A DNA stretch of 64,000 nucleotides from Ginglymostoma cirratum (Eukaryota). Made by a program: the position numbers and the translations under genes. The stretch spans positions 12,467,778 to 12,531,777 of the forward strand of contig JAHRHZ010000088.1 of NCBI GenBank assembly GCA_024137785.1, read 5' to 3'. Below, piece by piece: positions 7,785-35,487 of this stretch; position 1 is the first letter of the stretch; each line of letters opens with the position of its first letter. A model generated the notes under the pieces. It saw nothing but the letters and a program-made list of their open reading frames with translations. It made no database searches and had not been told where the DNA came from.

Positions 7785-7963
7785 ATGCTGGAGAACACGG
7801 CGGGCTCTGGCCCAGTCATCCTACCTTGTCTGCTGCTGACCACCATCCTCCTCGCTCTGATCGATGCCAAGGGCAGCTTCTACGCCCCTTACCGATATAA
7901 CCTTTTCACCTCAGGGTCTAGCCCCAGCCTGAAAGGAGCGGGACGAGTCTCCGGCCGGCACAA
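7785..7963 (+). CDS. EMILIN3: EMILIN3-like, coding exon 1 (signal peptide and N-terminus)
   Basis: ATG 7785; MLENTAGSGPVILPCLLLTTILLALIDAKGSFYAPYRYNLFTSG...GRHK. Hydrophobic signal peptide; RYNLFTSG resembles the EMILIN3 RYSLYTTG segment. Donor AA|gtgagt, phase 2. Confidence 0.88.
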
Positions 7964-8377
7964 GTGAGTCCCTTTTTCAGCTTTGCTCAAGTCAGTAATT
8001 CTTCAAACCGCCTGCAGTGTGAAGCTTTCACATATTTGATGTAATTTTTATGCATAATGTTGCTTTTCTTTATTTGCACGCCATACGCGACGGGCAGCAG
8101 TGTGCACTTCTGATTTTATGGTCCACCTTCTCAAACCATACTTCTATGTTCTATCTCCTGATCGATTTAGAAAGAGCACATTTCATGCATCATGGAAAAT
8201 TGCACGTGCTTTATTTTTCACAAGAAAACCTCGTTCAGTTATCAATCCGTGCCTTTGTTCAAAGTTTCATTTCTGCGAGGTGGGGAGGAGAACTGGCATC
8301 AAGTGTTGCTGCTGTAAATTGCTGTAGTTACTGAGACAGAGGGAACAAAATTAAATCTTGTTTTTTTTTAACTGCAG

Positions 8378-8503
8378 GAACTATTGTGCTTATATTGTGG
8401 AGAAAAATGTCACTTGCACAATGCAGGACGGGACAGATACCTATGTGAAAGCTGAGTACCGCCAGTGTGCTTGGGGCCAGCTGAAGTGTCCAGGAGTGGT
8501 CAT
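8378..8503 (+). CDS. EMILIN3: EMILIN3-like, exon 2 (EMI domain, first half)
   Basis: Acceptor ttttaactgcag|G; encodes NYCAYIVEKNVTCTMQDGTDTYVKAEYRQCAWGQLKCPGVVM; donor AT|gtaagt; 126 nt. YVKAEYRQC matches EMILIN3 as recalled. Confidence 0.93.
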
Positions 8504-9165
8504 GTAAGTCTTCAAAACCTCCAAACTGTGCGCCAACACCACATCAGTAACACAGGAGGCGTCCGAGAGGAAATGGGCTGCTAATTTGCAATTACAGCTC
8601 ATGGTATCTGTATATTTGTTCCCAGTCTAGAGGTGCCTGCGAACGCTGTAGACATTTTTTTTAAAAGACCTTGTCGCAGTAAAATGCGTTATCCAGATTT
8701 TTTTTTGTACGGGACCCCCAATCCATCGGGGGGGTGGGAAAGGTTTTAATCTGGGACAAATCATTTTAAGTTGGAGACTGTGTGACTTTTTTCCAATTGC
8801 GCGTCGCCTTTAAACAAAACCACAAGTGATTTTTCATGGTTTCAAAATAAACCTAGGGTCGCTTCACGTGCACAAAAGAATACCAGCTTTAAATGACTGC
8901 TTTTGTGCAACATTCAATGGAGGATTGCGCCGAATGCTCTGAGCTGATTAAAACTTGATGGTTGAATGTTCCTGGCTTAATACTACCGAGTGTGTTCGCA
9001 TCCTGTGAAAATTAATACACTCGACTATTTTAAAAAGCGGGATTGTTTGCGTACGTTGATATAACAATTTGAGACAGTTGCCCTAAATTGACAAAATGAA
9101 ATAAGATTCTGAGAAACTGCACTGCTGTCTAAGGGAAAGGAAACTTTCTGAGCAGTGGCGCAGTT

Positions 9166-9179
9166 CTGCCATCTGCTGG
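9166..9179 (-). promoter_or_regulatory. CTCF-like motif
   Basis: CCAGCAGATGGCAG on - fits the CTCF core CCASYAGRKGGCRS; next to a CpG cluster (ccgccgcgcg). Confidence 0.45.
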
Positions 9180-9429
9180 TCTGTAAAGGACCGCCGCGCG
9201 TCCTCAAGTCCAACACCCAGTCTCAGAAAGTGCCAGGTATTTTTCATCGGAAAATACCTTTGACGGCTTTAATGACATTGATATGATTTAGCACCACAAT
9301 TACCCATTTAAATGTCATTACATTCAATTCGTGATAGAGGTCGCATTGAACAAAGACTCCCACTTAAGACTGAACTTGAAAGAATAAATCGTGTTCCCTG
9401 GCACATTTAATCCACAACAGTACAGTCAA

Positions 9430-9890
9430 AACAATCTTTTAATGGAGGAAGGTGGAGTTTTCTAATTGCGTTAGCTTTGTTGGATACGCCAAAGAGAGAC
9501 TGGAAAAACGATTTGATCACTTTACAAGTAGGAGGTTAACTGGAGATTTTTTTAAATATTCAAAAATTGTGAGGGATTTTCATGAAATCAAGAGATGTTT
9601 CAACTGGTGAGTAGACCAGTAACCAAAGCACACAGAGTTAAGCTCATTGGCAAGAATTAGAGGGGTAATTATGAAAAAAATGCAGCTTTTTTGTTACATT
9701 TGGAATGCACAGCCTGAAAGGGTGCTGCAAATGGTATACAATTTACAAGGGAATTTGACATATTTGAGAAGAGTAAAAGAAGTTCAAAGCAATGGAGAGC
9801 GACATGGATGAAAGTGGAATGACTATGATGACTTTAAAGAAATAGCTAGACATGTTGGGTTGTTTGGCCTGTTTCCATATTACAGGATTC
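9430..9890 (+). mobile_element. Degenerate CR1 LINE 3' fragment
   Basis: Decayed CR1 ORF2 end and tail (tggaatgcacagcctgaaagggtg). Confidence 0.55.
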
Positions 9891-11326
9891 AATCATTTGC
9901 TCGTCTAGTACAAGAGGACGCTGTTACCTAAACAGGCATATCTGTCAAATAGTGAGGACACCAGTAGGGTGGCATCATTGGCATAAGGGTGGCCTTCCAG
10001 TTTTCCAATGAGACAGCTTTCAACTGAAAGGCAAGGATAGTGCATATGCTGGCAAACATAGACTGGCACTAACAGCGCAGCAGTTGATGATCAGCCAGGT
10101 TTTAACGTAACCAGTGAATGAGATGCAGAATATTAGAAACATATTAGGTCATTGTTTTGGCCAGGTTCTGTTACTAGCATAGCTTCTTCCAAAAACTGAG
10201 CAGATGCTACCACACACCCCAAAGAATGAAGGGCAGCTGCTGTTGAAATGCAGGTTGGCTACTAGTGCAAGTTATGCTGCAGATGTTATGTCTGCTGTAG
10301 CGGAATTGTACACAATGTGTTTTCTAGTTCAAAGTTTTTTTAACTACTTAAACTGTAAAGAAAACAAATAATTTGTTATGTCAGATGCTGTCAGCAGTGT
10401 AGTAACATATATCTTAATAGGAGTAATTTCATATCCCAGATTATATAAATAATAGTGTCCACCTTAGCATCAATGTAAATCAAAATTATAGTGGGTTATG
10501 GTTTCCTGTATTGATAGCTACCAGGGAAGCTTACTTATTACATAACTGTTCCTTATGGTATTGTTACAATTTATTGTTTGCAGTATTAGCAGCAATGAGT
10601 ATCGGCCATACTTAGTGCAGTTATTCTGATGGCAACTTTTCAGCTCATATTCCAATAAACACAGTAACTAGTAGCTAAGGAAGTGTTTGGTGTGTTCGTT
10701 GCATTGTTGTTTGCTGATGACATTTATGCATCCCGTGAAGTTAAACATTTTTATGTCTGATTTAAAGGAGGGTGGAATATTTTCGTGTCTAAACTAGTGA
10801 GAAGTATATGTTCTCTAGATAAAGGGAAGATCCCTGGATAGATTGTCAGGTAGTCACATTTGGACATTTCTTCCTTGGCGTGGTACTGGTAGTTGGTTAG
10901 TGCACAAATCTTATTGCGTGAAGTGTTCTATAAACGGGAGTTAGCTGAGAAAGTATAAAATTAGAATTTTAAAATAGCTAAAGCAGACTTCTCTGACTGA
11001 TAAGCAACCATGAAATATTATAATAATAATGTTCTTCACTACATCCGTTAAGCATAGACAGCTGCTTGGAAAAGGACATCAAATTGAATTGGGTATGTCT
11101 GATTTTGTTGACTCTTATTAAAACTACTAGTTGACTTGGAGTTTCAGATTATCATAGCAATAAGACTGTATTAGGATTCCTGTTTGGCTTCAAAGAAGTA
11201 ACAATCTGAGAGAATAATGATCACACCATTAGAATTGTTGGTAACTTTCCAAGAAATTTCACTTTGAACTCCATCATCAAAACCAGGGCATCCAAAGTAT
11301 CCATTGACTTTTTTTCCATAATTAAA

Positions 11327-11663
11327 AATCATAGAATAGAATCCCTGCAGTGTTGATACAGGCCATACTGACCCTCTAAAGACCATCCTACCTAGACCCA
11401 ATCCCCACCTGATCCCACATTTCCCATGGCTAATCCACCTAGCCTGCACAACCCTGGACACTACTGGGCAATTTAGCATGATCAGTCCATCTGACATGCA
11501 CGTCTTTGGACTGTGGGAGAAAACTGGAGCACCCAGAGGAGACCCACACAGACACAGAGAGAACATACAAACTCCACACCGTCAGTCACCCAAGGCTGAA
11601 ATCAAACCCGGATCCCTAGCGCTGTGAAGCAGCAGTGCTAACCACTGAGCCACCACGTCACCC
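11327..11663 (-). mobile_element. HE1-like SINE
   Basis: Near full-length copy, clearly similar to 836-1177. Confidence 0.85.
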
Positions 11664-11776
11664 TAAGTTATGGTGAACAAATCTTCCCAAAGATTTTACC
11701 ATTAAATTATCTATTGATCCATGGATCAATTCACTTTAATACTTAATTCAGAGAAGAAAAATCATCAGCTGTATTT

Positions 11777-11872
11777 CTGAAGAAGGGTCAAGACCTGAAA
11801 CGACAGCGTTCCTGCTCCTCTGATGCTGCCTGACTTGCTGTGTTCCTCCAGCTCCACACTGTGTTATCTCAG
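11777..11872 (+). mobile_element. Short Penelope-like element with hammerhead core
   Basis: CTGAAGA agggtcaagacct GAAACG ac...gatgctgcctgacttgctgtgttcctccagctccacactgtgttatctcag. Confidence 0.65.
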
Positions 11873-13468: not shown

Positions 13469-13632
13469 GTATCGAACATTTTACAAACCCAAATACAAAA
13501 TAGGATACAAGACTGTTACAGAATTAGAGTGGAGATGTTGTCCAGGATATTCTGGTGATACTTGCCGGGAAGGTGCAACAGGACTGCCTGAACTTGTGCC
13601 ATCACACCCTGGACCCAGAAAAGGTTATTATG
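13469..13632 (+). CDS. EMILIN3: EMILIN3-like, exon 3 (EMI domain, second half)
   Basis: Acceptor ctccacacag|G; YRTFYKPKYKIGYKTVTELEWRCCPGYSGDTCREG...KGYY with the canonical EMI WRCCPG motif; donor G|gtaagt. Confidence 0.94.
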
Positions 13633-15159: not shown

Positions 15160-15660
15160 CGACAGGAAGGAGTGTGGAGGCTTTGGAGAAGGTACAAAAC
15201 ACATTTTCCAGGATGTGGCCTGTATTGGCGTGCACCAGCTGGATTGGAGCATTTGGACAAACTTGGATTGTTTTTGCTAGAGTGTTAGGGAACCTGATAG
15301 AAGTATATAAAATTTTGAGAGGCATGAATAGGGTGGATAGTGGGAGTCTTTTTTCCCAGATTTGAAACATCAAATGCTAAGGGGCATAGAATTAAGGTGA
15401 AAGAGAGAAAGGTTTAATGGAGTTGTGTGAGGCACATTTTTTACACAGTGGGTGGTAGGTGCCAGGAACGCACTGCCAAAGGAGTGGTAAAAGCAGATAA
15501 GGTGGCAACATTTAAGAGAGATTTAGAAAGACATATGAATAGGCTGGGAATAGACGAATACTGACCACATACAAACAGATGGAATTAGTTTAGAATGGCA
15601 TTATGGTCAGCACAGACGTGATAGGCCTATTCTTGTGCTATACCGTTCTATGTTGTATGT
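15160..15660 (+). mobile_element. CR1/HER1-type LINE 3' fragment
   Basis: ALEKVQNTFSRM...GNLIEVYKILRGMNRVD, the CR1 ORF2 C-terminus; ends in a ttctatgttgtatgt tail. Confidence 0.8.
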
Positions 15661-16682
15661 TGATTACATTGTCAGGTCACCTGACTCCATGATTTAATTT
15701 CCATGTCCAAACAAATAAAGAGAACAAAAAGTTCTAATATCTGCTGATATGTTAGGGTATGTAGGATAATCTCTACGATCAGGTTAAAATGTTATAATCG
15801 TCTGTTGGGTTGTTCCTAAAGCAGTTACGTAAAACTGACGTTTTTCTACATAATTTGAGAATGTCCAACCTCATTTACTGCCCTTTCTTGGAAACCTCTC
15901 TCCAGGCAGCGTGCCTAAATGGTGGTTGGTGATGATGGATTGGGTCGGTCTATGATTTCTGCTTGGTCCAGTACGTGAGTGGCTTGCAGTTGCCTTCAAC
16001 AGGAGGCTTTCTCCTTCCTCCCGTGTGGTGTCAGGTGTTTTGGTAGCAAATGTAGAATGGTATTCAACCTTTTTGGCCACATTTATGAACAATTCTTCCA
16101 TGCTCATCAAGACCTAGATTGGAACTTGACCTGGAGCTTCTAGGTAGGAAGGCTATCACTGTATCATAAACCCTCCCTTCATCAATTACACATATCATGT
16201 TTTCCAAAGCAGAATAACACTCTTCTAAAAGTAACTTAAGTATTTTTTATGGCCAGTGAGAGGGTGGAAAGGACTTTAGTTTCTGACTCGGGTATAAACG
16301 CTAATCGCCCAGCAATCCAAAAACCTTTTGTAACTAGGAGTAATTGATTCACTTCAGGTGATACTTATGTGCCTTCTTGGGTTAACAGAGGCCTTAGAGG
16401 AATATGACAAGTTAGCAATTCATCTGTTGTCCAGATCCCTTCTGAATAACACCATGAGGAATCACAATGATATGTGCAATATTATGCTGTAACGATATTG
16501 CTCAGATTGATCTAGAGACCTAACTTTTATGGAACATGGCTTATAAATCTATAGCTTAATGGCTTCACTAAGACTGAATATTAAATAGTGGTAAAGTTAT
16601 TCAATTTAATTAGTTTTCAGTTTAGTTTAATTTAGATTTAAATTGTAAAATACACTAATCTGAGAATATTTATGCCTCCTAG

Positions 16683-18542
16683 GTCCCAAGGCTCCAGATG
16701 TCTACGGAGAACGAATCGATCATTTGGAAGATGAAATACGACATTTTACACTATCGTTTGAGAGACTCCAATCCATGGTGAGTGGGATCAGTGACAGTCT
16801 CAGACAATCCATTCAGAAAGACACCAATAAAATGATTGTATCATGGCTGAATAATCTGAAATGTCCTGATAAAGACTTTGCATGCATAACTGAAAGCCTG
16901 AAAAATCTGAGTAAAGGATACCCACCAGCGATGGGAGACTTAGAAGGCAAGGTCCCAGACGATAAGGATGTCTTGAAAACAAACAGTGACTTGCTGCATG
17001 ACGTTTATGGGATGGTGATTCGTCATGATCGCCAAATCAGCCAACTTCTGGAGGCCAGTAGACCACCTACACCTACAGCACCTGGGGATTTTCTCAACAG
17101 CTTTATAGATGACAGGCTCACCAAGTTCCGAGCTGACCTACTCGATGGATTTGAAAACAGATTCAATGTCTTGCAAACTGTCTGTGATTACAAAGTAAAC
17201 TTAATCCAACAACAGTGTGATGAACAGAAGAACATAAATCAACGCCTTGAAGGAATGATTAATGGAAAAGAATCTGACCTAAAAAAGGAGATTAATAACT
17301 TACAAACTCAGATTGGTGGATTGACTGTAACTGAAAATTGCTGTGACAAAGTCAAGTACTTGTCAGATAAAATCAATGCCCTGGAACGGAACCTAAAAGA
17401 AATCTCAGACTATCAAAGATCATTAACAACTCGGTTTGAGAGTGAGTTGCCGCAATTCCCTAGTATTCATTTCGAAAATGAGTACAATAGTAGGCTAGAT
17501 GACATTGAAGCCAAAATCAATGCCACTGAGAGGAGACTGGAAGAAAATTGTCTGTTCATAGAAAACAACATGAAGGGACATCTTGGAACTGAGCTGGACG
17601 GTATGAAGACATTCCTACATGATAAACTAAAGGACGTTGAAGGCCGAGTTACTGTTATTGTTGAGGAGTTGAGCAATGTATCTTTTCCTGCCAGCCTAGA
17701 AGGAGAAGTAATCCCAAGGCTAGAAACAGAGATTTCAACAATTAAGAAGAAAACTAATGATGGCCTGGTTGATTTGGAAGGAAGACTAGAAGTTTTGGAG
17801 AATCTGTGTCCTGTTAGTTGTACCTCAATTATTAGTGACATTGAAACTCTAAGAACAGAAATTGATGATTGCCACAGAAACTGCCAAGATATTGTGACAA
17901 AACTAGATAAGAACTCTGGTCTACTTAACAAACTTAACTACTCTATGTTTGAAATAAACAGAAAAATTAAAGAGGAAGAAGAATCCAGTGCCGTGCAGGG
18001 AGAAATTACTTTACTAAAGATCAACATCAACTCCGTGAACAAGACCCTAAAAGGGATCAAAGACTCTGTCAGCAAATATGCTGATGACTTTGCATTTGCC
18101 AATTCAACGTGGGATGAACACGAGCGCAAAATGACAGATGAAGTCCATCTGATCCAACAGATAGTGAACAGCCAAGGTTCCCAGCTCCTTTTTAATGACA
18201 AGCGAGTCCATGAGCTCAAAGGTGATCTGGAACGAATTAACCATCGGATAATGTCAGATCTCCATAACTGCAAACACAGCGCTCAAGATATCCAGAAGGA
18301 AGTGTCACAGGTTGACAGACGAGTGACTCAGATGGAGAGTGTGTGCAACAAACTAAGTGCAGTATTAAATAGTCTGGATTATATTAAGGATGGTTTGGAT
18401 AATCATGCTGGTGATCTGTGGAATTACTTAGACCGCATGAATTTAACCCTCATGGTACACAATCAAGACATCACTGCTCTAAGAGATTCAGTCAATGAGT
18501 GCCATACGAGAATAACAGGCATCGGAAATCGGGCATTAGATG
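16683..18542 (+). CDS. EMILIN3: EMILIN3-like, exon 4 (large coiled-coil exon)
   Basis: Acceptor cctcctag|GT, in frame with the 630-aa ORF 16724-18616. Heptad-rich, Cys-punctuated coiled coil typical of EMILINs. Donor GAT G|gtaagc at 18543. Confidence 0.92.
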
Positions 18543-21500
18543 GTAAGCATCAACAATGCTGTACCTTCACTACAGTTTTACAAATCGGATGTAAAATAGT
18601 TAGGTCAAACTTATAGGATTTCTTCAAAATTCCTAATCATAACCCAATATTCATACTAACGTTATGAAATAATTCTGTACAATAGTGAAAAAGCATAGAG
18701 ACAATTACCCATTATACACACCATTTATTCAATACATCTACTGTGGAGCAGTAATCCAAAGAAAAGGGTTTAGACAGCTTCATAAACTGCAAAGATGAAA
18801 TTCAGTTTGTATAATCATCAGCTGAATCCAGTAATTGGATGACTACCTTTACAGCAAGTTACAAGGATCTGGTTCTGAAACAAAATCATTACTTCCTTTA
18901 AACTTGGCTGAGGTTGGGACTTGAGGTGAGTGGAAGAGATTTAGTTTCTCTATACAAGTAAGATAAGTAATAGTTTCAGGAGAAAGGTCAGCCATTTACG
19001 ACTGAGTTGAGACATTTCTTCATTCAGATAATCCTGAACCTTTGGAATTTTGTAGCCTAGAGGACCAGGGATGCTTTGTCTTTTGAGTATAACTTTAGGC
19101 TTTCAAAGAATATGGGAATAGAGCCAGAAAGTGGAGTCGAGAGTCGAGATAGGTGCTCAGCTATGATTTTATTGGATGGCAAAGCAGACTTTCAGGCCAT
19201 TGTACCTCCTTTCGTTCTTACTTATTTTCTTATGAATGCTCAAAGATACACACTGAAATTTTAATTTTAAAAGCAAAGCAACACTTAGTAAATAAAAGAA
19301 AGGAAAGGAATCCACTGTGTATCATCATATATGGTATTATGCTAGCGAACATGATGGTTGTGATGACTTTAGACCGCCAAATTCACATACCTATATAACA
19401 CAAGATAGAAAAGTTGAAGTTTACAGTTCAGCTACCGCATGTTCAGCCAATGTTGTCTATGTCAACATTTTGCTAGATCAGTTCTGAACAAATTCTACAG
19501 CTCTGCTGTCTCCCTGTATCTTTTTCTGATTCAGTTATTAATGCACTTTCCTCTTAAAGGATACACATGGTCAACCACTTCCTGGGGTGCATCCTAAAAA
19601 CTGTGTAAACAAATTCTTCCAACTTCTCATTCCCTGTCAGCATTGTAAATTAATTACCCCAGGTCACTAACTCACTAACCAAAGGAAATAGTCTTTCCTG
19701 TAATCTCACTCCCTCATCAAAACCTTTCATAATCTTTACCATCTCTTAAAATTTCCTTTAGCCTTTTCTCATGGAAATGGTCTCTGTAATTGAGTTCAGT
19801 CAAACCATCAATATTCATGAAGGAAACAAACTTTTTCCAGTTATAAAAGCTTCAGTATCCAAGAACAGAAATCCAAATATTCTTCAGTTCATTTAAAACT
19901 GTCAAAATTACCCTCTGTGCAACACTTACTAATTGCTTACCTAAAAGTATTGAAATTATCCAGATACTGTACAACCATCAACATCCCATTACTGAATGCT
20001 AGACTATAATTAATAATTTCACATTGTACAGTCATCCTGGGTTACCGTAAAATGGTTACATTTCGTGTTGCAAATTGAGTTAAAATTTAATTTTAATTAT
20101 ATGAACTAATAATGCACCACCAACAGGAGACCTCAATAACTTAAATAATATTGGATTGTGACTTACTTCACGGAAACAGGAACCTTTCTCATTTCTGTTG
20201 TAGACATAATGATGCAAAATTAAAGGATCACGAACAAAGAAATGCTACCTCCACCTCATGTATCATTTACCTCATACTTATAAACACAAAATTAGAGCAA
20301 TTGCAATTATCATAAAATTCCAATAGTCAACTCACTAACACACACCAAGGAGAGTTGAAACTTCCCAACAATGCCTGTTTGTTGCCCACACATGGAGCAT
20401 TCTGTAGATTATTAATGATGCCTAGCAGCTCAGAGGCTGAGCTCATGTACACCACATCAGCTCAGTTCATGTTGTCTGAATGGTTTTTCATAGAAAATAA
20501 TACTTTGAAGGGCACAGGCACATAACTTTACAATGTGGTAATAAGTTAGAACAAACGACATATTCCTCTGTGTACTTCTATATAGCATGCAGGAAGAAAA
20601 TGGAAAAAAAGAAAAGGATTATTGAAATCTGTTATGAATTGAACTGTAGAAGATAATATTGCTCCAACACTTGAAGCCATGTGATGATTTTAGATGTACA
20701 GTTGGGGGAGCAGAGATGTTTATATTGACCGTCTGGCACTACTTACGGTGTTATACGTTGCTTTGAACAGACCGCCAACTCCCCCCAAAAAGTCAGTAGT
20801 GGTTTCAAGGATGCCAGTAGGTTAGCATCAGCTGTTTCAACAACTTAATATGTGTAAAAATTCATCGGATTTGTGTTTAAATTTCATGCATGATAACCTG
20901 AGGCTGCACGGTGTGTACCAGTTTAACTTAAGAGGAAAGAAACCCCATACACTCCTCCAGCAATGATATCTCACGCTTCAAAGATTTTCCTTCAGGTTTA
21001 AATAAAAGAAACAAATGGGCAAGATAGTAATTAATGTTCACAAATACTAACCTTACTTAGACTTCAAAACATTTTTTTACATGCTTTCACACAGGCTGTA
21101 GTGAAGGTAAGGATGACTTAAGACCTAACCTTGCTATCTAGAGATGTTTAGTATGACGTACAGCCAATAAGTAACAAAAGATGGAAAAGTTTTACAGTTA
21201 TAACAAATGCAGATCTATTCAATATCTGACATTCAGGTTTTTTTTTGGCGAGTGCGTGTTAATTCAGTTCACACAAAGTAAAAGGGCCTGTATCTTGAGG
21301 TTCCCCTTATGACTCCAAATATTAAGTTGTCCTTGCAACATGCTGCCCCCATCTGTCAACTGCTGGCAGAAAACTTGTTTCTGTCTAATATTCGCTGTTC
21401 AAAGACATTGTTTCAGGAATGTTTCATAACACCTCAGAGTCTGAAATGTTTCAACTTGCTTAATCAGATGCAAATGGTAGTACTTTATTGGGAAGGAATA

Positions 21501-22829
21501 TACAGTATGTCAGCACCACTTATTGATGAAAACTCCAGATTATTCAATATTAAATGTGTATAAAGAAGCTGCTGTTAATGGTACCTCCTGCTTCCCACAC
21601 TCATCAAACGACTTTCTACACATGATTCCCCTTTTTTTACACAATTGTACTAATTTCTAAAACTGTGGTTCAGTCTCCAACATCTTTACTAATTAACTAT
21701 TTAGATATTGAAGAAACAATAGTGGAAGACAGTGCTTCTATGAGGCTGAGATTTAGAAATTTCCTTTGCGGGCTTGACTACCAAACTAAAGATTCAGACT
21801 TTCATTTTCATTTAAAATAAATACCAGATCTTAGATCCCATCTAAATATGTGTGTCTACTTGCCCACTTTGGTTCTGCTTTCAATATACCTCTGCTCTTC
21901 TATCAGATGACAGCATACAGAATAAATAATTAGTCTTTGTGTGAATTTTAAAACACGCCTTGTAGTAAAATGAAAACATTGAGAAGATGGATTACTGAGT
22001 GAAAGGTAGCTCTTGATGTGGAAAGTTGACTAGTTGATGATCAGGGAAGGGGAAAAGTGCAGAATTTTTTTCCCAGCTTTCTTCAGTATCCATACACATG
22101 GCTCAGAGTTTTCAAGGTATACCCAAGTGTGAACCGTATGGGTCAGGAAGCTGAAACTTTCCCAGGGTTTCAACAAAGGTGATCATAGTGGCCCAACAAA
22201 TAGTATTTCTTGCTCTCGGAAATCTGGAAGAAAATCAGCTAGTTTTGCGGCTGAGCAGACTTGGCTTAATTGCTATGTGTTTCTTATAAAAATTCTTGGT
22301 CTTCTACAATAAATCTGATTATAACAAAGTATATTTATAAACTGAAAATGAATGATTACATGGGACACTGGTGTCCTGAAACAAGCTGTTTACTGTTTTC
22401 TGGTACATATACTTTATTTTAAAAAGTTGCAGTTAAGCTTGCGAAAGCCAGCTGTTTGTCATTCATAGGTCCTTCCTGGAAGCAAATTGTTCTGTAATTT
22501 CAGTACATCTGCTATGTCACAATCTCACCAAATTCATATAATTTTAATGAGAAGATTGAGGTCTGTTACTTTAATTTAAAAAATTGGCTATTGACTGTAC
22601 CAGCTGGGTCTCCATTAAAAGCAGTGAATAGTACCACTGTTTAGCCTATAAAGATTAAAAGAACGTTTCATTATTTATAGGGTGTTCAGCTATACTGATC
22701 AGTAGAAATATATGGCACAGTCTCTGGAACAGGTTCCAAAGTTTTTTTCTGAACAGGGCTACTTTGTGTTTATTTGTTTTGAAATCAGCTCCATTTCAAC
22801 CATATGTCATGATCCGATTAAAAGAACTT

Positions 22830-23210
22830 GGATCATTATAGCACCTTCTTATGTCCTCAGGATGCCCAAATTGATTTACAGCCAGTTAATTACTTCTGAA
22901 CTGTAGCCACTGTTGTTTTGTGGTTAAACAATGCCATCAATTTCCACACAGTAAGGTACTCAAACAATAAGTTGAATAAACGATCAGAGGATGTTCGGTT
23001 TTTTTCATTTCCTTGGTTCAAGGAGGAGTTTCGGGCACTCAGTTTAGCAGTAATAGAGGATCATTAACGTGAGAGTGGGCCTTGGTTTAAATCTTGTCTA
23101 AAAGTTAATGACTGGAAAAATGCAATTACCTACTGAAAGCCATTCCTGTTTTCAGCCTACATTCTGTTCTGGTCCTGCAGTAGTATTTGAATCCACAACC
23201 TCTGACTCCT
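22830..23210 (-). mobile_element. Deu-domain SINE (SacSINE1-like), old copy
   Basis: gggccttggtttaaatc...tcagcctacatt...ttgaatccacaacctctgactc resembles the reverse complement of Deu-SINE head and core as recalled. Confidence 0.6.
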
Positions 23211-24439
23211 ACAGATTCAAGTTTTAGGTACAGAAACCGCAGCTCTCGAGTTTCATGACAAGGACAATGCAACGGGACTTGAATTCAAAGGGGTGATTCA
23301 TCACTCTGAAAACAAATGTTAAGAATGTGGATTTAGATTCAGCCAACCCTGCTTATGTACATGTGCTCAAATTTCTCTCCTTCCTAACAATAGAAGCTTT
23401 ATTGCACTAATATTGGAGCACTTGGGATTCTTAGCATCTTGTATATCACCTCAGAACTTCTGTTATAGTGAGCAGTCAATGTCGGTTCAAGTAGTTACAT
23501 TTCTGTTCCTGGAACAAAGGCTATACTCTGATGTTGAGGACTAACTGAGGTCAGTCAGAATATTAAAGTGTAATTCTAATTACAGAAATAGTGATAACCT
23601 AAAAACAAAACAACAGAATAAATTGCTGAAATATTTTTGATAAACAAAAGAACTTTAAATCAATTCAAGTGAGCAAAAGCCACATATTAGTATTATATTA
23701 ACTGCATCTGCTTATAAAGTCTGCTGTCAGTCACATAAAGACAATCCACTAATTTAGGACCTTCACAAAACCACTTTGATTTGATCTGTAAGAAACAATT
23801 ACGTTAAGTATGCTTTTCAAAACTTATGAAACATCTCACTTTGAACAGTGGGCAAGAGGAAGGAGAAATGAATGAGTTCCTTGGGGCTGAATTTTCATTT
23901 TCAGCTCCACCCTGCCATTGGAAAGAAACTTGGGTGGGTTGGGATTCCACAAATGCCAGCACTGGGGGCAATGTTTGAGGAGGCCTCCAATCAATTTTCC
24001 ACCTCTGGGAGCTCAATCCAATTAAAGAAATCCAATAGAAGGCCCTCCACCAGCGAGGGATCAGAAGCCCACAATCAGAAGGGCCCTACTTGCTTACACA
24101 GCATTCCAGCAGCTCTATCAGTTGTCCCCAGTGGGTAATTTAGTGAGGTGGATTACCTACCACTGATGTGTGGGTATCCTTCAGCCAAATTATAATGAAA
24201 GAGAATATAGTTGAGATGTAGGAAAGGCTAGAGAGGAGGAATTAGAAAGAAAATGGCTGAAGTTTATGTTGCTAAGTTAGCAGAACAGTCGAGAGGCATC
24301 TGGAGTTACTGAGGGAAGCAGGTGTGGAAACTGAGGTGACGCTGGGCACAGCCTTCTAATGCTGTCTTACAGGGGCTGTCCAAGAGTACTGGAGCCTTGC
24401 ACCTTTGTTCATAAATAATGCAAGGCTAAACCTAGGAAC

Positions 24440-25745
24440 ATACCAAATGGTTTAATCTCAGTGGTAGGAAAGCTTTTAGAAGCAGTCATTTTGTCACAGA
24501 TTTACTGTCACTTGGAAAAATGTGGATTAATTAAGAAAATTCAGCACAGGGCAAATCTTGTTTAACTAATTTGATTGAATGGTTTGATGAGCTGTCAGAG
24601 GCTTGAAGTGGTAATGCTGTTGATGTAGTCTTCTGAAAGATATTGGATACAGTAGCATATAACAAACTGGTCAGCAAATTTTAAACCCATGGGATAAAAA
24701 GGATAGTGTCAGCACAACACGGATACCAAGCTGGTTGACTGTCAAGTGGCAGAGTCTAATGGCAAACAGTTGTTTTTCAGGCTGGAAAAGTTTATACAGT
24801 TAGCTTCCCTCAGTACTGCTTTTCTCGATCCGTGTTAATGACCTAATCTTGGGCATGGAGGGTGCAAATTCAGAATTTGCAGATGAGAAACTTGGAAATG
24901 TTTTGAGAGATGGATATGGATTGACTTCAAGAGGACATACCTTGGTGGAGTGAGAGTGTGTGTGACAGATGAAATTTATTGGAAAGAAATGTGAAATCAT
25001 GCATGTTGGCAGGAACAGTGAAGAAAAGCAACATAAAATGATTGGTATGATTTTAGAGGGGGTGCAGGAGCAAAGTAAGCTGAGGTGCACATGCGCAAAT
25101 CATTGACTGTAGCAGGACAGATTGAGAAAGTAGTTAATATGCCTAGGAGGTCCTGGCTTTTATAAGTAGAGACTTGGAATACAAAAGCAAGGAAGTTATG
25201 TGAACTTTTATAAAATACTCCATCTGCCTCAGCTGGCATATTGTGGTAAACTCTGAATACCACACTTTAGGGAATGTGACAGCATAATGGTGAGGGTACA
25301 AGAAAAGTTGGAGAACCTTTGCAGGCGTGAGGGAATTCTGTTTCATAATTAGATTGGCAATTTGGAACTCCCCAGAGAAGACTGAGAAGAGATTAGATAA
25401 GTGAGGAGTCTCCACAGAGTAAATGGGAAGAAACTATTTCCGTCAACAGAAAGATTAAGAATCAGCGGACATCCAGTTTGCAGGTAAAAAACCTAGGAAA
25501 AACATATTAACTTGTGAGTGGTTAGAATCTCAAATGCATGGTTTGAAGGTATGGTGGAGGCAACTTAAAGCATTGCTTTCAAAAGAGAATTGTATCACCA
25601 TTTAAAGAGAAAAGATTTGCAAATGGGAAAGATTGGGGTAGAGGGATTCCTGAGTTGCTGTCAAAGAGCTGGCAGTGATATGAGGGGCTGAATAGCATTT
25701 TCATGCTGCAACTGTTGTATAATGTTATGGATCCTTTCATGATAT
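24440..25745 (+). mobile_element. CR1 LINE RT-to-3' fragment, decayed
   Basis: cagcacagggcaaatcttgtttaactaatttgattga (QHGF..SCLTNL-like) and gaatttgcagatga (FADD) remnants; many disruptions. Confidence 0.75.
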
Positions 25746-27808
25746 GCTGCTTATTCCAAGATTGAAAAGATCCAAACCACAAGTAACATTAGAGGTCCTG
25801 TGTTATGGTGCTTTCATATGACAACAGCATATTTGTAATATGATGCCCTTTTCAAAATGTCTGCCATGTTATATTGGACTTGTACAGTTTGAGGACTAGT
25901 TGTTCACAAATCACTAAGTTTTACAATTCAGCATCTGCATTCTTTAATTGAATTATAGACTATAGAAATTCATTCTGTATCTTTATTACACTTTGCAGTC
26001 CGTCATGCAACTTCTATTAAAGATGATGTACACTATCATAATGGCTTTATAAAAAAATTATGAAGATTAGATCTTGCCAATGTATTCAATGTAGTTATTT
26101 AATTTTAGGGAATCTGCTTTAATTCACATAACAGATTAAACCTATTTAGGATCACATCAGAAATACTGGATTTAATTTGTCTTGTAAATTTGCTGATAAC
26201 TGTATATCATGCTTATTTTTGCAGACCATTATTTAGGCCATTAAATGCAGAGACAACGATAGTAGAACATTTGTTCATCTGGATGATTTTGAGTGTTTAG
26301 TGGGGAATATGTCACACTAGAACTTACTTTAATATTTACTTTAAAAACCCAATTCGGCAGTAAATTGCTATTGGTTACTATGTAGATTTAAAGCTAGAAA
26401 GAGCTATTTTACACAGGTCAATGCATTAAAACTGCTTTGTTTTCTATACAGGAGCTTGTCAAGTCAAATTTGAATAAAGCTGTGAAATTTCACAGAATGG
26501 TGGAGCAGAGAAGGAGACCTTTCTTCCCCTTGTCTGTGCTAGTTCTTTGAACTAATTATGGAATTTTTTGAAAAACTAACAAATTATTTAAAAAGCGGAA
26601 AGAATTAGAAAACTCATTTTTAGGTTTAAATCGTTCAAAATGGGTAACTAGGGAATCAGCTGGTAGTTTTCAGATCCTATTATATTCCACATTTGTTCAA
26701 TTATATAATCCAATTCTGTACTTTGGCAGTGATTTTTAAAGCACTTCAGATAGGAAAAAATATCCAAACTATATGAATTCATCAGTAAATCCGTGATCAT
26801 AGTTTGTTTTATACAGATTAATTAGATTCCAGAGACTCCCACAGCATACACAGTATCAAGCTTATGAAGCAACACTGTGCACTAACAAAGACAGACCACT
26901 AGGATAATAACAATACAGGCATTGTTGCAGAACAACCACATTCTGCACACAAGTTCAGCGATAAAAACAAGTTATGCATATTAGGTTAAAGGTCTGGTTT
27001 TATTTAAATTCCAGATAGTTAGCAAGGTTAATTCCTTGTTTTGAATTGTTGTATCAAGTTCATATTTTCTCTTACTGAAAAGGAAGAAAATTATTTCAAT
27101 TCTAATTATCAACTTCCCCGAGATTGCCTGGTGTTCCCGGATTAGAAAGGTCACTTAGTCTCCCGAAATCACCAACTGACCTATTTTGCATTATCTGGTT
27201 AGTAATTCAACATTAACACGGTGATTAAGGTTCACCTACATTCGCTGCAGCACAACTGCAGAGTGCGCACACACATTGTAATTGTAGTTCCAGCGCACTG
27301 TGGCTTCACTGCCAGCAACACCACAGGTAGTTGCCTGCAGCAGTGATAAACATTTAGGATGCCTACTGATTTTCGCTCCACTCATAACCCTTTATGCCTC
27401 ACTTGTCACCTCAGTCACCTCCCACTCACTGCTCCTTTAATCAACTGTCTCACTGCCCCACTCACAACCTTTGAGCCCTCGTCAGCAGGAAGAGTGTGGA
27501 AGCAGAACAGTAAAAGTTGGTGCGAATAGGGGCAGCAACCATGAGCATCAATGGTGATGACAGCAGCATCCAATTCTTATTTCAGTGCAGTGGAGGAGGT
27601 AGTGTTAATGGTAAATGTTTTCATGTGGAATAACAAACTAAAAGTGTTCTTGATATCTGTCTATTATATTTTGTCAAAAGAAATTACTTCCATATTTAGA
27701 CAGAGCTCCTTGTGAATGTGAAAGTACCAATATAAAAATGGATGGCATCAAATAGTGTACTAGAGTGGCAGATTTTCAAAACCCTAATAGTGTCATTTTG
27801 AATTGCAG

Positions 27809-27844
27809 GTCTACAAGGACCTATTGGCCCTCCTGGATCATCAG
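27809..27844 (+). CDS. EMILIN3: EMILIN exon 5: 36-nt collagen-like micro-exon (GLQ GPI GPP GSS)
   Basis: ttttgaattgcag|GT CTA CAA GGA CCT ATT GGC CCT CCT GGA TCA TCA G|gtaaaa; phase 1-1, frame-compatible with exons 4 and 6; Gly-X-Y periodicity. Confidence 0.8.
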
Positions 27845-29325
27845 GTAAAATTACAAAAAATACTTTTTAAACTACCAGCTACTACCAATTATTTTCTTGT
27901 CAGTATTTTGATAGTTAAACACAGAATAGTTGTGCAGAATATTACCAAAGGTTAAGGTCCCAAATTTACAGATAAAATTCCACATTTTAGAATAATTCCC
28001 AAGCCATTTCTGTTTTTTTTTAAAAGACAGTTTAAAATTTCCATGTGACTTACAAAACTTTTCATTCTTGGGCTACCTCCATCCATGCCATTCACCACAG
28101 CATTCCTGCAGCTACTGGTCTGTTGAGTTAATGTTTTACCTCTTCTTCTAATTCCCTTATTCTTGGTTAAGGCCTTACTCTCTCTCATCCTGGTGGTTCC
28201 CGCAGTAACCACCCTATCTTCCTTGGTATAATGGAAGACATGGTATAAAGGATGGCTTTTAGGATCAGAAACAAATATCTGTTCAAGCAGGAAGTGTGTG
28301 TGTTTGCTGAAGTCAAAACGACTAAAATCTTCGAAATGAAAGCATCCCTTCCAGCTGGCAGGATTTTATATTCAGTAGTTTACCACAGTGTCCAGTTTTC
28401 TTAGTTAAAAAGTGGCACCAGGCCACGGGTTTCTGCTTCAGCAATTACCAGACCAAAGTATTATCCTCCATTAATGAATGAGAGGAAGATTGTGGGCTGA
28501 CAGAAGCAAAAAAACACCAGCCACAATTTATTCACATGCTGTAGTCATATCAACATAGCTGTACAAGAGGGTCTTTGCATGAGAAAGCAACAGCAACATT
28601 TCTATAGGAACTATATTGAACGCAGAGGTATTTCCTTTCTGAACTTTGTTCTAATTTTTGAATTTGGTGCATGTATTTAAGTTTAGTGTGGATAATGAGA
28701 GCCAGCAAACATTTTCCTTGCTAAATGTGCTAAGTTTCACTTCAGATTCCTATTATATGTTTGTGTCCATCTGAAATCGAGAATGGTCAAAATTTAACTG
28801 GATTGGTCAAAAGGTAAACAGTCTGTTTGTCTACGGCTCAAGTCCACTTCAAAAGGACAGTGTTTTAATTCTTTATTCCAGCCACATCTCATGATTCTCA
28901 ATATAGGGAGCCTAGGGGTCACTTCATGTTGTAGAATTGATTTACCTACGATTAAGAGAAGCACAATTCAAGTTAAAATCGTTCAAACAGTTGGTTGAAC
29001 ATTCCCAACATAGAAAGTGCTTTGGACAGATTCTTTCCATCACAAACATTTCCTGTACTGGCAGTAAGCAGCTGGCCAGGTTTTATTTTTCCTTGATAAA
29101 AATCAGCAAGTTTTATTTATCCCAAGACTGCTTTCACTAAATAGATTCAATATGCATGACTGTTTTCCATTATTGAACACTGCTGTGAATGTTTAGTCAC
29201 AAATTACGTCATAGGTTTTCATGTGGATTTTCATTTAAAATAGTAAAATCAGCCAATTCCAAGTTTTTTTCCTCATTGCAATGCATTTTTCTTCCATGTC
29301 CATTGATTATAAGTTTTATTTACAG

Positions 29326-29457
29326 GATTTCCATCCTTTGCAAAACATGTTACGTTCTCTGTGGGTCTGACTGAAAAGCCCTTCCCTGCTGATAACGGTG
29401 TTGTAAGATTCAACAAAATTCTCATCAATGATGGAAGTCACTATGAGCCCCGCACAG
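29326..29457 (+). CDS. EMILIN3: EMILIN exon 6: gC1q domain, N-terminal part
   Basis: ttttatttacag|GA; [44 protein letters not shown], a C1q-type F..IL.N.G.HY...TG motif; donor G|gtatcg; 132 nt. Confidence 0.88.
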
Positions 29458-29568
29458 GTATCGTATCATTTGACACAATTACAGTTTTTTTTTGTTGATG
29501 CTGTGGTCTTTGGCATAAAACTCTTCGCAGACTGCAGAGCCGAAACCATTCCTGTTCAGCAAATTGTT

Positions 29569-29606
29569 GAAATTCATCAAACTTGTCGAAATTCATCAAA
29601 CTTGTC
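29569..29606 (+). repeat. Perfect 19-bp tandem duplication
   Basis: gaaattcatcaaacttgtc twice. Confidence 0.95.
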
Positions 29607-32600
29607 TTTTCTGAGATTGATGTATAGCATGCACAATCCACAGCAGCACTGAGATGTGTTTCCACCTTTTTGCCATTTGTTGCTCCTCAACAGGCAATTA
29701 GAAATAAGTGTCAAGATAGCACACCTTCCATGGTTCAGCCCTCCACCAGCACAGATGGGGTTAGAATACTGTCTGGAGATATTATGTACATGACTCATTT
29801 CGGAGCACAATACAATGCTATATTTGCTGATAACTTATTTTTCCTACTTGTTACCAGCCCATAGAGAAAGTACAGCATGCTCTTATTCTGATCTAGCAGA
29901 TTACTTTAAAAAGTGTAAATTAAGAAATTGGACTAAAGTTGGAAAATTTACCCTGTTGTGTGTCATATCAGTCCGTAACCTAGTATAGTTGAACAGCAGT
30001 CAGATGAAAAACATGCTCCTCGCTCTCTGGCTCACAACTGAACACTGAATGAGATCTGATAACTAGTCCATCCACATATTTAATAACAACCTGCTACTTC
30101 CTAAAGGTCAGTGATATCTCCACTTATTTTGAAGTGCATAATTGTATTAATTCAACTTGCAGATTTGCAGCAATAAAGCATAATTTATATGTGGTGTTAC
30201 TTAAATTAACTGATCACACAGAAGAAATAGCAAGAGATATGGTTGTTGCCCGGGTGAACGGTGAAAGCTCAGTAATCTCTCCTCAGTACAGGGAATGGAG
30301 AGATGCCAATATCGTTTACCAACTGCTTATCCTTCAGGAAGCCAAGTTCATAGTTCTTTTGAAAAGTAATTCTGAAACTGCTCAAATGGAATAAAAACAG
30401 TAAATTATACATATGCAGTTCCACAAGTTATTTTTCAAATTACATTGGCTTCATTAACTTCTAAAATCACTGGGGATACTCCATGCAGGTGAGTAATGAT
30501 GAACCACATTAGGGGAGTTTCATTTAATTTTAAGTCATTGCCTGAAGTAGAGAATAGAGAACCATCTGCTGTACATTAGCTCTGTGAATTTACCCCCTCT
30601 TCCTGAATGGTGTCTGTCTTCAATCCAAGCATTCCAGATAATTCATCATGCTATTACATTCCTTATCAGCTCAAATAATTTTAATTTCATCTTTGGTTGT
30701 TGTAATCAAAAACTATTCCTATATTGCTTCATTTCCCTGCAAGTCTTCCTGTTTATAGTGGTCTTTAGTCTAAAATATTGTCTTAATTTTCTTTACCAAA
30801 ATTATACAACTCAACCTAACTGTGATGCAACCACTTCTATTGCCTGAGAAGTGATTGATTTGTTAAATATACATTGACAAGATATTTAGTTGGCTATATA
30901 TAAATATAGGTTGATCTCATGTAAAAGTTGACTCCAATCGGAGTATTGGCCAAAAAATTCATTTTTCATATATCACAATGTATAGGACAGTCCCTGACCT
31001 TTAACCAAAAAGCCCAAAATTAAACATATCAACTACTTGCTGCTTAAGTCAAGCTCACCCTGGTGCAAACTCACTGATGGCATAGCTTAGCGCACACTGA
31101 AGGCTGTTAGTTCCTCACGTCTGCACATTTCAACACCAGTGTGCATTGTGATCCTACCAATCATGCCCTCAAATATGGCAAGCTGATATCAAGGATGGAA
31201 TGGCACATACACAACCGAGCTCAGAATTGATATCACTGAGATTATGGAGCAGAATAATAATTAGCTCTAGCTATTAAGCAGTAGCTAGAGAATTCAAGGA
31301 AGTTTTCTACGCAACTTCTATAGACAAATACCCAGGAATAAAAGTGCAAAACACAGCCTGAATGGTGTACCAGATTTATTATGAGAAACAATTTTTCTGT
31401 CACAGAAGAGTTCAGTGCCTCCCAGCAGAATGTAATGAAATTCGAGCATTTCAGCAATTTATAAATCAAACATAGACAAAAGAATGAACATAGACTGGCC
31501 TGTATTGGGAACATGGTTAAGACTCCCATAAACAGTGACATGCCAGTCAATCAAACAATGGACAGAGAAATGGTGATGAAAACTGGCCATGGAAAAAGAT
31601 TTGCCATGTTCTGAGTGTATGTCTTACAGGCAGTGCTTAAGCTAATGATGATATTCAAGAGTAAAACCCTCTCAAAACAGCAAACACAAAAATAGTAGTT
31701 GTCCACATTCAAAATAATAAATGAATGTAAAATAGCTGAAAATATGACTAAGGAAAATTTGGAACTTCCAATCAAAAAGATTACATAAGGAAAAAAAATT
31801 TCTTATCTGGGACACAATCAAAGGTGATAATGTTGTTGCCGCAAGTTAGATCATACTGTGATTCCCAGGATTCCAGCTAGCCTTTTACAACTATTAGATG
31901 TTTCTCTAAACAAGCCTTGGGATAGCATAAGAAAAAAAAAAAGAATAACTGAATGATCAGAGAAGGTATTCAATAAGATTTTAGGTTTCCTTGGTAAAAA
32001 TCAGCAAATTATTTATCCCAAGACTGCATATGTTCTCTGACATTTGCAAGCCTATCTGAATGGGTTGAGGAGATCGGACATGGAATCAATGTTAAATCAT
32101 AAAGAATAACAAAATATCCAGTATACCTTGACAATGACTATTTGTGGAATATATTGCTGATGAAATCATCAGTACTGAAGAGTATGATGTTGATGATCCA
32201 CAATGGGGTCATTCAAAAAGCTGCTCAGTTTTTTTTCTGAACCGTGTAAATTGTAAATGGCTTTTGTTTTTCATGGATTGATAAATTTAATAAAATTTAG
32301 ACTACAGAAATTAACTAATTGACTCCATGTTGGTTAATATTTATTGACAAATTTTAGTTATAAAAACAATTTCAAACTCAGTTTCTGTGGTAGCAGCTGG
32401 TTGAAGCAGATTCCGACATAGTAACTGTGATTGCAAGGCAATGGGAAAGGGAGGATTTCAACTTCTCCAAAAATAAAAATGTTATTCTTGTAAAAAAAAA
32501 GAAACTGTATGACTAGGTTAGTTTCAGCATATATATTTGGGTAAGAGTTGGGTTTCTAAATCAGTAGTTTCATACTTAGTACCAAGAAGTTCTTTACCAC

Positions 32601-33316
32601 CCAAACAGCTTGCTTTCAACAACTCATCTGATGACCTTAACTGATTGCTAACAAATGCCTTTTTTCAAATGAAAAAACAAGAACACGAGAGTGATGACTG
32701 CACTGTTTTTGAGTAATGAGCTGTCCTGTTTACAGAGAATTGATCCAGCATTGCCACAACTTTAAAATCATCATGCTTGCATTCAAGTCATTCCGTAACC
32801 TTGCCCTCGATGAGCTGTGATTCTAACGTAAGATACTGGAGATCTGAAGTAAAAGTAGCAAATGCTGGAGAAACTCAGAGTCTGAAAGCACATGTTGAGA
32901 GAAAAACAAAGTTAATATTTCAAATCCAATATTACTCTTTCATTCCAAAAAGTGTCTTGCATTCTCAAAACATTAACTCTACTTTTCTCTCCACGGGCCT
33001 TCTGAGTTCTTCCACTCTAGAAGTAGAAGTAAAAATGTGTTTTGCATTCCTAATTTCCCTATTACAGCTGTGTCTTCAACTGCCTTGGCACTAAATTATG
33101 GAATTTCCCTAGCTCCACCACCCAATCTCTAAATCACTTCCTGTTCTGTGCTCCTGAAACATGCCTCTTTGCTCAAGGTTTGGTCACCTGCTGAAATATG
33201 TGGCATGGTGTCCAATTAAAGCCATTTAAAGCATTTTGTAAATTGCTGTAGTATTTTATTTTCTTTTGAATTTTTTTTGTCCAAAATTGCACTCACCAGA
33301 ATTATTTGTTTTGCAG

Positions 33317-33654
33317 GTATATTTACCGTTCCCTACAGTGGACAGTACTTCATTAGTGCTATACTGACTCCGCAGAGAAACGAACGCATTGAGGCTGTGC
33401 TGACTGTATCCAATGTAAGTGTTGCACAAGTGGACACAGCAGGGTACAGGACTGAAGTATTAGAAATTGCCGTGGACAAAATTGAGAATCATTCTGGAGG
33501 TGGTCTTGCAGTGTTCAGCCTAATTCTTAATCTGAAAACTGGTGACGAAGTGAGTGTTGTCGTCATGTCAGGAAAATTAGCTTACACAGGAACAGATGAG
33601 CTACACTGCACATTTAGTGGTGTTCTGCTAAATGATTCACAAATGCACAGTTGA
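33317..33654 (+). CDS. EMILIN3: EMILIN exon 7: gC1q domain, C-terminal part and stop
   Basis: ttgttttgcag|GT; GIFTVPYSGQYFISAILTP...VFSLILNLKTGDEVSV...CTFSGVLLNDSQMHS*. The seven exons sum to 2835 nt (divisible by 3). Confidence 0.9.
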
Positions 33655-35481: not shown

Positions 35482-35487
35482 AATAAA
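35482..35487 (+). terminator. Candidate polyadenylation signal of the EMILIN gene
   Basis: AATAAA at the end of a repeat-poor AT-rich 3' region; alternatives at 34252 and 35281. Confidence 0.45.

Follow-up and report, generated by a model that had tools for sequence, protein, structure and literature searches.

The gene lying between positions 7785 and 33654 of the analysed stretch of Ginglymostoma cirratum DNA (64,000 nucleotides, hereafter the window) corresponds, by sequence comparison, to EMILIN3, of which it is the ortholog in cartilaginous fish. Splicing carries the transcript past exon 4 into an exon of Gly-X-Y triplets and then into two exons that encode gC1q; we consider it likely that this gC1q domain is ancestral and was lost once, in the stem lineage of bony vertebrates. 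EMILIN-3, a matrix protein, is the truncated member of its family, without gC1q, in reviews. The preliminary description of this DNA had proposed an ancestral full-length EMILIN3 whose gC1q was lost later in bony vertebrates, and orthology, splicing and the distribution of gC1q support that proposal.

Gene structure and splicing

The gene model comprises seven exons (EMILIN2 has eight) separated by six introns, all of them GT-AG, and its 2835-nt open reading frame encodes 944 amino acids with a single, terminal stop. The features of the window are as follows.

7785–7963, + strand: coding portion of exon 1, with the ATG, a likely signal peptide and a pre-EMI segment, in agreement with P0001 and other shark EMILIN-3 N-termini
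8378–8503, + strand: exon 2; first half of the EMI domain, with Cys 63, 73, 90 and 97
13469–13632, + strand: exon 3; second half of the EMI domain (WRCCPGYSGDTC), with its 3' border connected to 16683 in X14 and X1 contigs
16683–18542, + strand: exon 4, of 1860 nt, encoding the long coiled coil and ending approximately where bony-vertebrate EMILIN3 stops
27809–27844, + strand: exon 5 (phase 1-1), a 36-nt exon with four Gly-X-Y triplets, whose skipping keeps the frame
29326–29457, + strand: exon 6; first part of gC1q
33317–33654, + strand: exon 7, coding part; remainder of gC1q including the 19-residue EMILIN loop (Y876–G894), TGA stop
33655–35488, + strand: likely 3' UTR; AATAAA at 35482, covered without a break by X14 contig 9 over 33314–35488
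40294–55881, − strand: lipin gene, 3' exons, facing EMILIN3 tail to tail and serving as a synteny marker; four of the exons match Pfam LNS2 above cut-off

The intron borders, the protein length and Pfam matches on an ortholog bear out the earlier reading of a clean seven-exon frame with EMI domain, coiled coil, short Gly-X-Y segment and complete gC1q, and the motifs quoted with it are all present in the sequence. The protein is identical to a whale shark record named EMILIN-3 at 932 of 944 positions and shows 27 differences from its zebra shark ortholog (P0394). Cartilaginous-fish models named EMILIN-3 (e.g., XP_020387697.2 and XP_048406556.2) have the same architecture at 97–99% identity.

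The three predicted junctions downstream of exon 4 (18542|27809, 27844|29326 and 29457|33317) are all joined at the predicted bases in one contig of run X14 (contig 9, 4855 nt, depth 41), with intron bins mostly at depth 0–3. This single spliced contig runs from exon 3 through the 3' UTR, and the contrary possibility raised at the outset, that exon 4 is never spliced to the gC1q exons, thereby failed. The first two of these joints are also present in run X1, and two raw reads of the polyA RNA-seq run X20 cross 27844|29326; the joint between exons 6 and 7 is known from the one contig of run X14, for which no library type is recorded. Exon 5 is included in the X14 and X1 contigs and in the two X20 reads, and is absent from P0393, which models isoform X2 of the zebra shark, as well as from P0007, P0011 and P0012. 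The end of contig 9 at 35488 is the end of a contig, which is not proof of a transcript end.

Domain organization

The N-terminus is hydrophobic, with a hydropathy peak at residues 13–23 marking a putative signal peptide, and past this peak no 19-residue window exceeds 1.29. The EMI domain contains seven cysteines (Cys 63, 73, 90, 97, 125, 126 and 134) and matches a consensus motif, WRCCPG(Y/F)xGxxC, the N-terminal seven-cysteine signature that defines the EDEN (EMILIN/Multimerin) family (PMC3342094). Exon 4, at 1860 nt, carries the long coiled-coil region on a single exon of about 2 kb as is usual in that family, and its product is homologous to EMILIN-3 records along its whole length, with 53% identity to coelacanth EMILIN-3. 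Pfam searches with the zebra shark ortholog returned EMI (E=1.5e-20) and C1q (E=7.3e-15), the latter over profile positions 2–127 of 127, indicating a complete domain.

The collagenous segment is vestigial and too short to count as a stalk. It consists of five Gly-X-Y triplets (residues 777–791), four of them encoded by exon 5, in contrast to the roughly 17 triplets that precede gC1q in the EMILIN1/2 type of stalk (PMC3342094). Its reading as a stable triple helix was rejected, and exon 5 is skippable. Hence, of the collagen stalk and gC1q domain announced in the preliminary description, only the gC1q, complete and spliced, stands. The EMILIN2 linker is also long and proline-rich, with an interrupted collagen of 17 triplets (PMC3342094), and the 17-triplet collagen of EMILIN1 is likewise missing from the shark protein.

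The gC1q domain is encoded by two exons, and the exon layout is the same as in EMILIN1/2 (PMC3342094). Its best sequence match in the PDB is the gC1q of EMILIN1 (2KA3/2OII; E=2.4e-29 over residues 795–937, about 43% identity). The 19-residue loop that replaces strand F aligns with 2KA3 ungapped, and E882 (codon at 33463) aligns with EMILIN1 E933, though the loops differ past this glutamate. The glutamate is conserved in all gnathostome rows aligned (8/8 EMILIN3, 10/10 EMILIN2 and 5/5 EMILIN1). Among cartilaginous fish, the coiled coil is less well conserved (mean identity 79.7%) than gC1q (83.8%). A fold prediction for exon 7 alone, made without an alignment, reached pLDDT 49 and was set aside.

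Orthology to EMILIN3

Trees of two separate regions uphold the earlier identification of the gene as EMILIN3. In the coiled-coil tree (LG+G4, five rows left out for run time), the shark gene lies with bony-vertebrate EMILIN3 inside an EMILIN3 clade supported at 100/100, and this clade is sister (95/97) to an EMILIN2 clade also at 100/100. The EMI tree, built without chimaera EMILIN3 (a bad N-terminal model) and without a hagfish row with a huge insert, again unites the shark gene with bony-vertebrate EMILIN3 (100/95). No tree had a multimerin outgroup. In neither region does the gene fall within gnathostome EMILIN2; identity as EMILIN2 was therefore rejected. EMILIN2 exists as a separate gene in sharks and rays, namely in Leucoraja, Heptranchias and Pristis, and the little skate (Leucoraja) has distinct EMILIN-1 (P0399), EMILIN-2 (P0129) and EMILIN3-orthologous (P0011) proteins. 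The other contrary possibility raised at the outset, that the whole protein groups with EMILIN2 in a genome without a further EMILIN2, likewise failed on the regions and species compared. A lamprey record named EMILIN-3 was considered as a one-to-one ortholog and rejected, because in the coiled-coil tree it falls outside the gnathostome EMILIN2+3 clade and is thus not a direct ortholog.

The content of the first four exons is common to the shark gene and bony EMILIN3 (mouse, human, zebrafish emilin3a/b and coelacanth). Unlike these, the shark gene continues past exon 4 into the Gly-X-Y and gC1q exons, and it has no counterpart of the proline-rich post-EMI insert of the aligned bony proteins.

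Distribution of gC1q among EMILIN3 proteins

The long form of EMILIN3 is conserved and expressed in cartilaginous fish. Among the 120 EMILIN3 records listed, PF00386 is annotated in 15 of 17 from cartilaginous fish and in 0 of 103 others. Our own HMM detected gC1q in 17 of 155 EMILIN3-class proteins, which are from named sharks, rays and a chimaera plus a skate-like protein (P0012); in chimaera, the long form comes from a gene model whose N-terminus is odd. When gC1q was searched at full length, identity dropped from 75% in chimaera straight to 60% in EMILIN-2. Complete lamprey and hagfish relatives in the gC1q tree all carry the domain (5/5, four of them with Pfam C1q). The lack of gC1q that characterizes mammalian EMILIN3 thus does not extend to the shark and appears confined to bony vertebrates; bony EMILIN3 is likewise described as having no gC1q (PMC13326518). 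RefSeq and UniRef already model the cartilaginous-fish long form through automatic annotation, and our literature search found no paper remarking on gC1q in EMILIN3 of these fish.

The bony proteins end close to the point at which the shark transcript continues. The shark exon 4 junction lies 14 residues past the last matched cysteine, and 59 of 103 bony C-termini (86 had such a cysteine) end 12–14 residues past it. Coelacanth and newt EMILIN3 terminate in D-G-E/K, the peptide expected from read-through of the exon-4 donor. An ending in G-[D/E/K/N/V] is found in 59/103 bony proteins, mostly related teleosts ending in GDQ (46), and therefore provides no independent support.

Probable origin and loss of the gC1q domain

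Since gC1q is found in shark, ray and chimaera EMILIN3 and in none of the bony-vertebrate protein records compared, it was likely lost after the two lineages split. EMILIN2 and EMILIN3 would have arisen from one gC1q-bearing gene through genome duplication; in the bony lineage, the exon-4 donor may then have ceased to be spliced, so that translation ended just inside intron 4, and the downstream exons would have decayed.

The observation that the domain resembles that of EMILIN2 holds in that EMILIN2 is the closest paralog match (about 55–60%), which is explained by EMILIN2 being the sister paralog, with the EMI domain, coiled coil, two-exon gC1q and loop glutamate in common, and by bony EMILIN3 offering no gC1q for comparison. 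The gC1q tree by itself, however, does not prove vertical descent and cannot separate retention from replacement by EMILIN2. The free trees, which exclude bony EMILIN3 and a hagfish row because of its huge insert, place shark EMILIN3 beside shark EMILIN2 rather than outside all EMILIN2 (68/63, 87/89 and 87/91), as expected if the EMILIN2 domain had been taken up in the cartilaginous stem, by replacement or by regain, through gene conversion or exon copying. We regard such an event as unlikely. AU tests leave EMILIN2 monophyly unrejected (p 0.25 and 0.17), and the alternatives tie once species-shaped subtrees are fixed (delta lnL 0.04 and 0.39). In a control without bony EMILIN3, one of four equal-length blocks of the coiled coil, a region that is firmly EMILIN3, favours the same grouping, and bony EMILIN2 is paraphyletic in two of the three free trees, which we ascribe to a rooting artefact. 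Group-mean gC1q identity differs by a small margin (59.9% for orthologous EMILIN2 pairs versus 58.3%); among the slowest taxa, shark and coelacanth EMILIN2 (64.6%) are closer than shark EMILIN3 and shark EMILIN2 (60.5%). A true regain requires both a loss and a gain. When the domain was divided by exon, no resolved signal emerged.

Repeated loss of the domain within bony vertebrates is very improbable, as is its survival in early-branching bony fish, unannotated or as a split-off gene. The C-terminal residues of lobe-finned and ray-finned EMILIN3 do differ, and the comparison draws on bony protein records whose named matches include no gar, sturgeon or lungfish EMILIN3. Nevertheless, coelacanth, amphibian, marsupial, bichir and teleost proteins all stop near the same point, and the full-length search passes directly from chimaera to EMILIN-2. 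A search for a bony EMILIN3-type gC1q as a shorter protein found none among 237 candidates; its eight matches were an 82% fragment grouping with skate EMILIN3 and seven at 31–59% identity. An EMILIN2 identity, or a prediction that wrongly fuses EMILIN3 with an adjoining gC1q gene, has a negligible probability given the EMI and coiled-coil trees, the separate EMILIN2 genes and the single spliced contig, even though the best gC1q matches outside cartilaginous fish are EMILIN-2 and the lipin gene lies tail to tail, an arrangement common to human EMILIN2 and human EMILIN3.

Predicted function

By analogy with EMILIN1, shark EMILIN3 is predicted to be secreted as a homotrimer, with assembly starting at the C-terminal gC1q and the coiled coil forming the rod. 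The EMI domain may keep the functions involving TGF-beta and heparin that mammalian EMILIN3 is described as having, and alpha4/alpha9 beta1 integrins may be bound through the acidic loop as in EMILIN1. Binding of alpha4beta1 and alpha9beta1 is reported for EMILIN1 gC1q, and other regions matter too (PMC5225433). Tentatively, the earliest jawed vertebrates could have had an integrin-binding, gC1q-headed EMILIN3 that sharks still make, and bony vertebrates could have clipped off this head in one step by read-through of the exon-4 donor. A matrix ligand for cell adhesion would thereby have become a protein that, in the notochord sheath and perichondrium, purely modulates growth factors. If so, the shark protein would be a natural add-back reagent for the effects of gC1q loss.

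A gC1q in some ancestor was to be expected from the paralogs; what is new is the timing, with truncation dated to the bony-vertebrate stem, and the long form surviving in cartilaginous fish. With this natural full-length EMILIN3 one can ask if trimers need gC1q in order to assemble, and if integrins were ligands of the lost domain.

The adjoining lipin gene

The emilin1/2/3 and lpin1/2/3 genes are located in paralogous regions that originated in 1R/2R (PMC9353778). Within the window, a fifth lipin exon tested against Pfam gave no match, and the DIDGT motif of lipin is located at 49707. The ESM Atlas label for the lipin exon is LNS2 only (score 0.82). The PEVFK motif of this gene we take to be LPIN3-like.

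Structure and splicing of the EMILIN3 gene

The window contains a real EMILIN3 gene that bears a gC1q domain, lying tail to tail with a lipin gene, with stop codons about 6.6 kb apart.

Features of the window
7785-7963, 8378-8503, 13469-13632, 16683-18542, 27809-27844, 29326-29457, 33317-33654, + strand: EMILIN3 exons, joined ORF
40294-55881, - strand: lipin gene, 3' half, with LNS2 exons, a DIDGT motif that is intact, and WWF at 55.8 kb
44749-45228: assembly gap region (400 N at 44789-45188; 40-nt flanking arms, perfect reverse complements)
57500-59600, - strand: broken reading frames resembling LINE reverse-transcriptase fragments

The joined exons (2835 nt, all six introns GT-AG) encode 944 aa with a single terminal stop, in agreement with the clean seven-exon ORF of the preliminary description. 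At the protein level, the N-terminus is hydrophobic, the EMI domain has seven cysteines, and a central region of 620 aa is followed by the gC1q domain. Of its 944 residues, 932 are identical in the whale shark EMILIN-3 record P0001, and the zebra shark ortholog P0394 differs from it by 27, which places the source among carpet sharks near these two. The closest PDB sequence match of P0001 is the human EMILIN1 gC1q (2KA3, E=2.4e-29). The proposed collagen stalk, however, did not hold: five Gly-X-Y triplets (residues 777-791) are present versus 17 in EMILIN1, and a stable helix is unlikely. The collagen stretch of skate EMILIN-1 (P0399, P0401) is shorter than that of bony EMILIN-1 (8 triplets in the related P0248 versus 15-18), so collagen length is variable across the family.

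Four public sequencing runs (X14, X1, X20, and X21) were mapped to 16500-35600; X21 contributed no reads. A single 4855-nt X14 contig (depth 41) spans exon 3, exon 4, and the downstream exons and terminates at 35488, adjacent to AATAAA. Its gaps of 9266, 1481, and 3859 bases, with GT..AG ends, are all three predicted junctions (18542-27809, 27844-29326, and 29457-33317). The X1 contigs carry the first and second of these joints, and 2 of the 17 reads of X20 (polyA RNA-seq) cross 27844|29326, while the exon 6-7 joint was found in X14 only among the four runs. Because the X14 and X1 contigs lack introns and join at canonical ends, they represent spliced RNA, barring a retrocopy, although the library type is unrecorded for both runs. 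Most X14 intron bins have a depth of 0-3, which indicates that the long form is dominant in X14. In intron 6, loose ends of several unrelated contigs from two runs fall at 32860-32970, which suggests a short interspersed repeat.

Exon 27809-27844 is a symmetrical 36-nt mini-exon, 9.3 kb into the intron, and a candidate for regulated alternative splicing. Zebra shark isoform X2 lacks it, as does the skate-like Logan protein P0012, and models from sharks and rays differ in whether they include or skip it.

Orthology and distribution of the gC1q domain

The exon 4 query matched 151 proteins, 120 of which are listed and analyzed here. Seventeen cartilaginous-fish records (16 named, one skate-like without a name) rank first, the next matches being coelacanth EMILIN-3 (53%) and then amphibian, bichir, and teleost proteins, and no EMILIN-2-named protein is among these 120. 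Trees were built from named proteins. The coiled-coil tree (31 rows, 620 columns, LG+G4) unites shark and bony-vertebrate EMILIN3 (branch supports 100/100) as sister (95/97) to an EMILIN2 clade (100/100), and the EMI tree (34 rows, 106 columns) recovers the EMILIN3 clade at 100/95, upholding the EMILIN3 identity. Leucoraja (little skate) has three separate records, EMILIN-1, EMILIN-2, and gC1q-bearing EMILIN3; Heptranchias and Pristis have the latter two. The emilin1/2/3 and lpin1/2/3 genes are described on paralogous regions of 1R/2R origin (PMC9353778). Lamprey and hagfish EMILINs possess gC1q and form long branches outside the gnathostome EMILIN2+3 clade of the coiled-coil tree. At least four EMILIN-like genes occur in lamprey and at least two in hagfish (P0233, P0264, P0256, P0292, P0276, P0311); several of their gC1q loops are greatly expanded and acidic, and their database names disagree with the tree.

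As proposed earlier, the domain separates cartilaginous fish from bony vertebrates: among the matches listed, Pfam C1q (PF00386) is found on 15/17 cartilaginous-fish EMILIN3 records (13 named species) and 0/103 remaining ones (92 named bony vertebrates, 11 without a name). The two cartilaginous exceptions are alternative models from species that also have the long form. Our own HMM, run over 416 collected proteins (350 classable by coiled-coil score), identified gC1q in 17 of 155 EMILIN3-class proteins, all from named cartilaginous fish or P0012, and 133 of the 138 others extend to the coiled-coil end. Marsupial EMILIN-3 protein records have no gC1q, and a search for shorter proteins gave no stand-alone bony EMILIN3-type gC1q among 8 matches. 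Judging from protein records, whose named matches do not include gar, sturgeon, or lungfish EMILIN3, bony-vertebrate EMILIN3 appears to lack gC1q.

Reviews likewise describe EMILIN-3 as gC1q-less (PMC13326518). Our search of the open literature, shark- and chondrichthyan-directed searching included, found no gC1q-bearing EMILIN3; subscription papers (primary EMILIN-3, zebrafish family) and supplements, outside this scope, may hold shark sequences in family trees. In the portions of PMC7144352 and PMC3397983 covered, EMILIN genes appear in synteny legends only. RefSeq and UniRef models already include the long form of cartilaginous-fish EMILIN3.

Proposed ancestry and loss of the gC1q domain

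In the gC1q tree, shark EMILIN3 forms its own clade (100/100) within an EMILIN2+3 group (99/98), where its own placement is weak. Conversion between the gC1q of shark EMILIN3 and shark EMILIN2 would give the grouping of the two seen in free gC1q trees (68/63, 87/89, 87/91). However, the AU test does not reject EMILIN2 monophyly (p 0.25 and 0.17), and with species-shaped subtrees fixed both alternatives tie (delta lnL 0.04 under LG+G4, 0.39 under C20). In a control with bony EMILIN3 removed, one of four equal-length coiled-coil blocks makes the same grouping. The tie and the control indicate that about 148 gC1q columns lack power. Retention of an ancestral gC1q, as first suggested, is preferred on parsimony, the two-exon gC1q layout that it shares with EMILIN1/2 (PMC3342094), and presence in the chimaera, the tree itself being no proof.

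The loss probably occurred when read-through of the exon-4 donor became fixed in the bony lineage, and several protein ends fit this. Continued past the donor, the exon-4 frame of the window reads D-G-K-H and stops after 18613; coelacanth ends in D-G-E-N-H, a newt in D-G-K-N-R, and a short chimaera model in D-G-K-Y-H, but most teleosts end in G-D-Q. The last cysteine is matched in 86 of 103 non-shark proteins, 59 of which end 12-14 residues beyond it; the shark exon 4 junction lies 14 residues beyond.

Potential function and neighborhood

EMILIN1 gC1q initiates trimer assembly and binds alpha4beta1 via E933 in the loop Y927-G945 (PMC3342094, PMC5225433). The shark loop Y876-G894 aligns with it ungapped and keeps the glutamate at 882. 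By analogy, trimer assembly and alpha4beta1 binding are predicted for the shark gC1q. Integrin binding is a potential only, because the glutamate is kept in every aligned EMILIN2 and regions beyond the EMILIN1 loop contribute (PMC5225433). In mammals, EMILIN-3 forms trimers although it has no gC1q domain, acts as an inhibitor of TGF-beta maturation, and uses its EMI domain to bind heparin (PMC13326518). In the zebrafish notochord sheath, Emilin3 and Scube2 act together (PMC10214685), and skin localisation of EMILIN-3 is reported (PMC11621341).

The 44749-45228 gap, in a lipin intron, looks like a scaffolding artefact. The PEVFK motif of the lipin gene suggests that it may be LPIN3.
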